From Gammaproteobacteria bacterium (GTDB lineage Bacteria; Pseudomonadota; Gammaproteobacteria; Arenicellales; Poriferihabitantaceae), in the NCBI GenBank assembly GCA_022822625.1, contig JAJEAV010000080.1, positions 34,258-98,257 on the forward strand: DNA of 64,000 nt. Reading direction: 5' to 3'. Under the pieces are notes generated by a model, which saw nothing but the letters and a program-made list of their open reading frames with translations, searched no databases and had not been told where the DNA came from. Positions 60,936-62,063 of this stretch are shown piece after piece. Each line of letters opens with the position of its first letter. Within the stretch, counting starts at the first letter, position 1. A program made the translations under genes and the position numbers.

Positions 60936-62063
60936 TTGAAGAATGGGACTTGTTCTGTGACTGTTTACTATCATAACGGAGAGTTTCCGCCGGATAGTCG
61001 CCTTGAATGGTCTAATTTAATTCCTCTGCTTGGTCCGACAGCGGCTGAAATTGCCCGATATGACGGTATTTTGGGAGCGATACCGAATCCATTTTTACTT
61101 CTCACCCCATTAAAAATACAGGAGGCTGTTCTTTCTTCAAGGATTGAGGGAATTCAGGCAACGGTTTTAGAAGTCCTGGAGTCTGGGAATGATGATGGGA
61201 GAGCCCCAACTTCATCTGAACGACAACTCGATATTCAAGAAGTATGGAACTACATCAATGCCATGCATAAAGCCGAGGAACTATTGAAAAAATACCCCTT
61301 GTCTCAAAGAGTAATCAAGGAGTCTCACTCCGTGTTACTGCAGGGTATTCGTGGTCACGGTAAATCTCCGGGGCAGTACCGACGCGTCCCCAACTGGATT
61401 GGACCACCAAATTGCAAAATGGATGAAGCAAAATTTGTGCCCATTGAAGCACAAAAGATTGATGATGCAATGAGCAAATGGGAAAAATACATCCATCAGG
61501 AACATCCAGATCGACTAGTGCAACTGGCCATTCTGCATGCAGAATTTGAGTCTCTATACCCGTTTTTGGATGGTAATGGACGTTTAGGGCGAATGCTGAT
61601 TCCCTTGTTTCTCTGGCAACAAGGCCTTATACAAAAGCCGGTCTTTAACATCAGTAGTTATTTTGAGGCAGATCGCGATACCTATTATGATGGACTTTTG
61701 TTAGTATCGAAAGATGGAAACTGGACCGGGTGGATAAAGTATTTCATGGAAGCACTCAGAAAACAGGCTGAATACAATTACCAAAAAGCACACGATATCC
61801 TTGGATTGTACGAAAAGACAAGGGAAGAAGTAGCGCAAAATGTGCGCTCCCAATATACAACTCCAGCATTAGACTGGATATTCAATTGCCCGGTATTTAG
61901 CGCCAGCAGTTTCAAGAATAATCAAGACATCCCGCGTGCATCAGCCAATCGAGTTTTATCTGCATTTGAGGATTTGGGTATTCTAGTGAAGCATAAACAA
62001 GCAAGGGGAAGTGTACCTGCAGTGTACGTATTTCCGAAATTGATTGAAATCATTGAGTCTTGA
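60936..62063 (+). CDS. Fic/DOC-family protein (Fic_N + Fic + C-terminal wHTH-like) whose Fic motif reads YPFLDGNGRLGR
   Basis: The Fic core FESLYPFLDGNGRLGRMLIPLFL has Tyr (codon TAC) where the catalytic His of HPFx(D/E)GNGRxxR is expected. The N-terminal inhibitory-helix motif SSRIEG, of the form (S/T)xxxE(G/N), is present. TTG start. Confidence 0.85.
   Translation: MKNGTCSVTVYYHNGEFPPDSRLEWSNLIPLLGPTAAEIARYDGILGAIPNPFLLLTPLKIQEAVLSSRIEGIQATVLEVLESGNDDGRAPTSSERQLDIQEVWNYINAMHKAEELLKKYPLSQRVIKESHSVLLQGIRGHGKSPGQYRRVPNWIGPPNCKMDEAKFVPIEAQKIDDAMSKWEKYIHQEHPDRLVQLAILHAEFESLYPFLDGNGRLGRMLIPLFLWQQGLIQKPVFNISSYFEADRDTYYDGLLLVSKDGNWTGWIKYFMEALRKQAEYNYQKAHDILGLYEKTREEVAQNVRSQYTTPALDWIFNCPVFSASSFKNNQDIPRASANRVLSAFEDLGILVKHKQARGSVPAVYVFPKLIEIIES

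Follow-up and report, generated by a model that had tools for sequence, protein, structure and literature searches.

What becomes of a Fic enzyme when the histidine at its catalytic position is replaced by tyrosine? The question is raised by a fic gene in the 64,000-nucleotide stretch of gammaproteobacterial DNA analyzed here as a whole (the window; contig JAJEAV010000080.1, positions 34,258 to 98,257). The first-pass annotation, made from the letters alone, described at 60936-62063 on the forward strand an open reading frame (ORF), which is indeed present in the ORF list, and offered three options for its product: a freshly inactivated enzyme, a pseudo-enzyme that still binds nucleotide or target, or a variant chemistry. 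The present analysis favours the first of these, retains the second as its main rival, and found no support for the third in the window protein. We consider it probable, though well short of certain, that the gene is a recent loss-of-catalysis allele in an eroding Fic islet. The earlier description of the motif stood, while the setting that gives it meaning, namely membership in the SoFic family with its defence/AMPylase activity and DNA-binding domain, repeats on either flank, and erosion of the fic genes next door, was missing from it. The features of the gene on which the argument depends are as follows.

60957-62063, forward strand: SoFic-type class II Fic gene, 368 aa from a GTG start (ORF, Pfam, PADLOC, 3EQX and AlphaFold2 model).
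61134-61151, forward strand: SSRIEG, residues 67-72, the N-terminal inhibitory-helix motif that defines class II (alignments).
61554-61592, forward strand: Fic signature L-Y-PFLDGNGRLGR, in which only the histidine is changed (translation, alignment).
61557-61559, forward strand: TAC, tyrosine, at the position of the catalytic histidine (H198 of SoFic); HMMER and alignment agree, and orthologues have CAC or CAT.
61806-62012, forward strand: C-terminal winged-helix (SoFic-like_C) domain; the PF21248 match of 20.8 bits lies below the cut-off of 27, and sequence and structure matches to 3EQX span the region.

The replacement of the invariant Fic histidine was upheld by both HMMER and an alignment of homologues, with the TAC codon encoding residue 208 when counted from the TTG at 60936 and residue 201 when counted from the GTG at 60957, in the context ...LAILHAEFESL-Y-PFLDGNGRLGRMLIPLF... 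A mis-registered motif, which would have undone the observation, is ruled out, as the tyrosine falls in the column of the catalytic histidine both in the HMMER alignment to 3EQX ('feaihpfIDGNGR') and in that made with MAFFT. The remainder of the motif, PFLDGNGRLGR, is unchanged, so that only the histidine position departs from HxFx(D/E)GNGRxxR. The inhibitory (S/T)xxxE(G/N) motif is likewise present as SSRIEG, is conserved in the 12 nearest homologues printed, and forms six invariant columns in an alignment of 40 sequences; residues 54-66 of the inhibitory-helix region have a low predicted local distance difference test (pLDDT) score in the AlphaFold2 model. With this inhibitory motif ahead of the Fic core on a single polypeptide, the protein is by its sequence a class II Fic in the classification of Engel et al.

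The first-pass annotation had begun the gene at the TTG, which is no more than the earliest start that the frame allows. The GTG at 60957 (VTVYYH...) is favoured by gene callers and common to all five orthologues, and by our own reading of the upstream sequence the L003 counterpart of the TTG is out of frame and accompanied by an in-frame TGA. The AT-richness that had been judged by eye held up when computed, with a GC content of 0.433 for the gene and 0.393 at its third codon positions against a window mean of 0.500 (standard deviation 0.021), and only 1.4% of windows of the same size are as low as the fic gene. A GC content this low would fit an acquired gene.

Family assignment rests on several matches. 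The product contains Pfam Fic_N (E = 8e-20) and Fic (PF02661; E = 7.8e-17, 62 bits versus a cut-off of 24), and the PADLOC model PDLC03963 for SoFic is matched at 352 bits (E = 8.9e-106) over profile positions 9-359 of 361 (351/361), while the NCBIfam SoFic equivalog model NF046030 is matched at 164 bits, far under its cut-off of 550. The structure of SoFic deposited as 3EQX aligns from end to end (HMMER, E = 1e-30), reaching residue 365. An AlphaFold2 model built from 40 homologues (pLDDT 80.6, predicted template modelling score 0.83) superimposes on 3EQX in Foldseek with a template modelling score of 0.80 over 371 columns, C-terminal winged helix included, and matches many further Fic structures. 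The protein thus falls within the SoFic-type class II Fic family in its broad sense, with Fic_N, Fic and winged helix-turn-helix (wHTH) domains, and not among the equivalogs of the Shewanella oneidensis enzyme. It is laid out in three parts: the N-terminal region for dimerisation, which also bears the inhibitory helix, is followed by the Fic AMP-transferase core and, at the C-terminus, by the winged helix for DNA binding.

Had tyrosine been retained in a clade, as the first-pass annotation suggested checking, the close relatives of the window protein would be expected to share it. They do not. In a MAFFT alignment of 120 sequences, window protein included, which are the top-scoring ones among more than 6,000 SoFic-family matches, 119 sequences have histidine and only the window protein has tyrosine, which rules out tyrosine as a trait of a clade around the window gene. 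The nearest relatives (P0002-P0006), which are 85, 83, 82, 79 and 68% identical to the window protein, all have histidine, encoded by CAC or CAT in these five closest relatives, so that the change amounts to a single C-to-T transition, as had been proposed. Downstream of the window gene leuC begins at 62624, and the genomes of P0002 and P0005 share the fic-leuC(-leuD) order with spacers that can be aligned. The window gene and its counterparts at loci L005 and L008 are therefore positional orthologues, which places the origin of the tyrosine on the window's lineage after their split.

What the loss of the histidine would mean can be gauged from characterised relatives. SoFic of S. oneidensis (SO_4266, or MloA; 3EQX, 3ZCN, 3ZEC) has the same three-part architecture, length and class II motif, and, as for the window gene, its promoter region is poor in GC and contains putative operator sites, although the two proteins are only about 25% identical and His198 of SoFic is tyrosine in the window protein. 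SoFic AMPylates and deAMPylates EF-Tu, and its H198A variant has neither activity (bioRxiv 10.64898/2026.07.09.737422). SoFic is a single-gene anti-phage defence family in PADLOC and DefenseFinder, and it is the PADLOC model of this family that the window protein matches. EcSofic of Escherichia coli, described as an abortive-infection defence protein, is toxic as wild type and not toxic as H194A (PMC12249575). CccR of Yersinia pseudotuberculosis, also a class II Fic with a wHTH, is a type VI secretion system effector that AMPylates FtsZ, and its H192A variant is catalytically inactive (PMC9755527). As the histidine is needed in these relatives for AMPylation, deAMPylation and toxicity, the window protein has most likely lost both catalysis and toxicity. 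By analogy, from the missing histidine and the non-toxic H194A variant of EcSofic, we infer that anti-phage defence activity would be lost as well. In the mechanism we propose, a single CAY-to-TAC transition in one lineage removed the general-base histidine of a SoFic-type class II Fic, and nucleotide or target binding may persist. With the rest of the protein intact, it is probably still made and dimerising. The restriction of the tyrosine to one lineage, the histidine in the closest fic-leuC orthologues and the histidine-to-alanine data together favour fresh inactivation.

The fic gene is framed by palindromic modules that suggest what the non-catalytic part of the protein may do. The strandless elements in the window and the paired modules of its relatives are listed here.

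60832-60867, no strand: first copy of a 36-nt exact direct repeat, containing the palindrome formed by TTTGTGGCTCAC and ATATGAGCCGCAAA (60841-60866).
60871-60906, no strand: palindrome TTTGTGACTCATA-N10-TATGAGCCACAAA, a putative operator and the best-conserved part of the upstream module.
62095-62130, no strand: second copy of the 36-nt exact direct repeat (downstream module), 32 nt past the stop codon.
60832-60917 and 62095-62130: modules of the window.
5913-5950 and 7140-7215: modules of L003.
3952-4030 and 5217-5300: modules of L005.
5112-5160 and 6350-6405: modules of L011.
3880-3954 and 5110-5183: modules of L012.

Each module is about 80-100 nt long and contains two palindromes (13-N0-13 and 13-N10-13) with the half-site TTTGYGRCTCAYA, which occurs six times in the window, always at the fic locus, against 0.71 expected. 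Such modules flank SoFic-like genes 5' and 3' in six genomes, which represent at least four genomic contexts. The 13-N10-13 inverted repeat is also found 5' of the orthologues in L003, L005 and L011, with a co-varying version in L012, and the downstream module is also found in L003, L005, L008, L011 and L012; the upstream copy of L008 is only partial because that contig has 68 nt ahead of the gene. Among nine module copies a single block is invariant, namely the right arm of the second palindrome. By eye, a conserved TAnAAT hexamer follows the second palindrome in the alignment (60912-60917), and the right arm persists even in downstream copies that have neither this hexamer nor a start codon. 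A scan for sigma-70 promoters gave no match inside the upstream module. The upstream copy is probably an operator for the protein's own wHTH, an assignment made by analogy with relatives. The copy after the stop codon may serve in looping, or may be a footprint of gene conversion or of mobility. Integron attC-like and Xer/dif-like recombination sites were also considered for the pairing of modules, which are not known to resemble either in sequence.

The analogy comes from two of the relatives. In the case of SoFic, the dimer binds the gene's own promoter at a distance of no more than 100 bp from the start codon (bioRxiv 10.64898/2026.07.09.737422), and CccR is an autorepressor that acts through inverted repeats near the -35 and -10 boxes; according to its authors, toxicity and regulation by CccR are independent, and the inactive H192A variant was nonetheless used to validate CccR-dependent transcriptional changes (PMC9755527). 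The likeness of the window protein to CccR extends to the class II motif (SARIEG in CccR, SSRIEG in the window), the C-terminal helix-turn-helix and inverted repeats in its own promoter. The operators differ, that of CccR being 10 bp-N26-10 bp (AGATAATCAT) and the window repeats being 13-N0-13 and 13-N10-13 with another sequence, and the window has a second module copy 3' of the gene. CccR is moreover a secreted effector with histidine, whereas the window protein has tyrosine and nothing that indicates secretion. Binding of the window protein to its own-promoter palindromes, as an autorepressor, has on these comparisons probably been retained.

The second component of the favoured reading, an islet in decay, is visible on either side of the gene.

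60701-60793, forward strand: remnant of a class III Fic gene, made up of its upstream region and first 13 codons (60755-60793, MTLENKLNITNQV), recognised by comparison with L005.
62131-62309, forward strand: decayed partial duplicate of fic, made up of the 5' leader and about 50 first codons, with indels and its GTG start now GTA.
62624-64000, forward strand: leuC, given as context and running past the end of the window; the fic-leuC order is common to L005 and L008.

L005 carries, immediately 5' of its fic orthologue (3209-3877), a 201-aa class III Fic with the motif HPFREGNGR and a C-terminal SYYYEG. The window has retained 13 codons of this gene, at 100% amino-acid identity with L005, and the next approximately 612 nt are missing. 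Remnants homologous to the duplicate fragment 3' of the window gene occur in L005 and L008, which dates the fragment to before these lineages split. No conserved small antitoxin-like ORF was found 3' of fic, and by our own reading the orthologous spacers have no counterpart of 62096-62257. The 53-aa ORF that one gene caller placed at these coordinates was considered as an EcAS1-like antitoxin and rejected as spurious, as it starts inside the repeat and lacks a counterpart in the orthologous spacers. Taken together, the substitution is best understood as a recent loss-of-function or detoxifying allele, and not as a new active site of adaptive value, within a Fic islet that would be small, AT-rich, horizontally mobile and undergoing erosion in this genome.

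Several observations weigh against fresh inactivation. Pairwise ratios of nonsynonymous to synonymous substitution rates (dN/dS) are 0.12-0.14 for the window gene versus its relatives and 0.08-0.13 among the histidine-bearing relatives themselves, and a three-taxon estimate made by hand gives about 0.14 for the window branch and 0.11-0.15 for its neighbours. Private nonsynonymous and synonymous changes number 8 and 14 in the window gene versus 35 and 102 in the other genes (Fisher p = 0.31). Among columns that are at least 98% conserved across the 120 sequences, the window protein deviates three times, by the histidine-to-tyrosine change and by a conservative L-to-M and K-to-R, and the fic gene contains no frameshifts or stops. 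The published loss-of-activity mutants carry alanine, not tyrosine, in place of histidine. Finally, Acholeplasma keeps a tyrosine Fic under purifying selection, as set out below, so the substitution is not always a dead end. Ongoing pseudogenisation was tried and rejected as a description of the gene: none of three tests, on conserved-column violations, pairwise dN/dS and counts of private changes, gave a positive or significant outcome. Besides the tyrosine, the private changes comprise G79N, V84A, L169I, L265M, E284G, T317A and G325D.

These same data sustain the strongest alternative, a maintained pseudo-enzyme, in which the tyrosine protein would be selected for a non-catalytic job, as a wHTH autorepressor or transcription factor or as a 'trap' for its target, and loss of the histidine would be tolerated or even favoured by removing toxicity. 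We regard it as possible, yet clearly less probable than fresh inactivation. The gene is intact, its dN/dS is about 0.13, damaging changes are not in excess, and the wHTH is present. The palindromes are conserved, vary together with the protein across six loci and are kept even in decayed downstream copies. Precedents exist in the catalysis-independent regulation by CccR and in the promoter binding of the SoFic dimer, and histidine-to-alanine Fic mutants serve as stable target traps (bioRxiv 10.64898/2026.07.09.737422). In Bartonella, Fic domains of Beps with degenerate motifs keep their fold and binding (PMC8401265). BepC and Bep8 thereby resemble the window protein as natural Fic folds that lack canonical catalytic residues, but their variants are clade-wide, long-established and involve several motif changes, as opposed to one residue in one lineage. 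It is this restriction to a single lineage, with histidine in all of the closest orthologues, that tells against a maintained role for the window protein, as does the loss of genes from the surrounding islet. The window branch is moreover long (dS of about 0.4, by hand), and a dN/dS averaged over it is blind to constraint after a recent mutation; the constraint data would be expected alike from a mutation of very recent date and from selection that persists for a role other than catalysis.

Purifying selection on tyrosine Fics elsewhere bears on both readings, and on a third. A DNA scan for Y-P-F-x-[DE]-G-N-G-R-x-x-R in one genome per species from 185,579 species matched at least 119 loci (L013-L131), with about nine expected by chance on our own estimate from 37 bits of pattern over 1.2e12 positions. 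Pfam Fic was matched by 115 of the 119 ORFs listed, hence in at least 115 species, bacterial and archaeal, isolates included. When binned by length together with the ORF of the window, 66 of the 120 ORFs are at least 250 aa long and 21 are shorter than 150 aa, the latter suggesting fragments. Most of the matches listed are scattered singletons, and 16 belong to the broad family of the window protein, at 35-57% identity to one another. Small groups that may retain tyrosine were also seen among the matches listed: L015/L024/L122 (70-88% identical), L037/L102 (86%) and L013/L018/L049/L084/L100/L104/L116 (35-77%; all but L084 400-430 aa).

The clearest such group is in Acholeplasma, where the Fic of A. 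oculi ATCC 27350 (L106:3288-4091) and 22 further protein clusters, 51-100% identical, make up a clade (P0121-P0137 and P0140-P0145; loci L106, L058, L117 and L123) that includes A. hippikon, A. equirhinis, A. granularum and others and in which all 23 clusters read Y-P-F-[LI]-[ED]-G-N-G-R. The inhibitory motif SITIEG is present in the four members read. Histidine is found in two clusters at 64-65% identity and in every motif-readable match below about 50%, so that the clade is nested among histidine-bearing relatives. Pairwise dN/dS among four of the tyrosine genes is 0.05-0.12 at dS greater than 1.7, values which indicate purifying selection. These proteins share with the window protein the same histidine-to-tyrosine change in an otherwise kept motif (YPFLEGNGRLAR), but they belong to another subfamily, are about 243 aa long without a wHTH, and inherit the tyrosine clade-wide; the two tyrosines are unrelated by descent. 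One could take such proteins to be a recurrent functional class, of which the window protein would be a young, independent case: once a toxic AMPylase, it would now act without catalysis, by wHTH autorepression or by sequestering a target, or, with the least likelihood, would perform a Tyr-based nucleotidyl chemistry. We think this an unlikely account of the window gene.

Less likely again is an artefact or minority allele, in which the T at 61557 would stem from a mistake in consensus or assembly, or from a strain variant that the assembler had picked over a dominant histidine population. The sequence is metagenome-assembled, and the 36-nt flanking repeats break other assemblies precisely here: the Logan contig (L002) spans 60856-62124, bounded by the two repeat copies, and the contigs L008-L010 begin 59-68 nt 5' of their fic genes. 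As independent assemblies break at these repeats, the joins beside the gene rest on short-repeat resolution. At 60411, within a short-chain dehydrogenase gene, this contig and the European Nucleotide Archive (ENA) assembly also differ by one base (A/G), which points to some strain heterogeneity in the sample. Against this, T at 61557 was obtained by three different assemblers from the one sample, BioSample SAMN22237344 (this contig, ENA ERZ23491076 scaffold_20569 and Logan SRR16351689), the ENA and Logan assemblies giving a protein identical to that of the window and identical DNA across the gene, and the interior of the gene is unique sequence, in which repeat-induced chimerism would not yield a point change.

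Least probable is a variant chemistry in which tyrosine would itself be catalytic, for example as a nucleophile with a Tyr-AMP intermediate or in another transfer reaction: the perfectly kept remainder of the nucleotide-binding motif and the tyrosine Fic ORFs in at least 115 species, stably inherited in Acholeplasma, would allow it, but the tyrosine is a singleton in its orthologue group, no private changes around the active site accompany it, and the papers cited here on SoFic, EcSofic, CccR and Beps report no activity without the histidine.

Further along the fic-leuC spacer, a perfect palindrome, AATTGCCA-TATAA-TGGCAAT at 62486-62506, surrounds a TATAAT hexamer about 120 nt 5' of leuC, within a stretch of about 200 nt conserved across three fic-leuC spacers; it may be a candidate regulator site on the leuC promoter. 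A search for structured RNA in the flanks (60500-62700) gave no Rfam match at E of 1 or below.

The window protein is, then, most likely a new, catalytically disabled member of the known SoFic-type family: a toxic defence/AMPylase gene that would have been switched off by one transition with its regulatory half intact, a case that otherwise changes little. More useful leads than the substitution itself are the modules, which travel with SoFic-like genes between contexts and are candidate operators for the reported promoter binding of SoFic, and the Acholeplasma tyrosine clade, which, being present in cultured species, would provide a natural test of histidine-independent Fic function.

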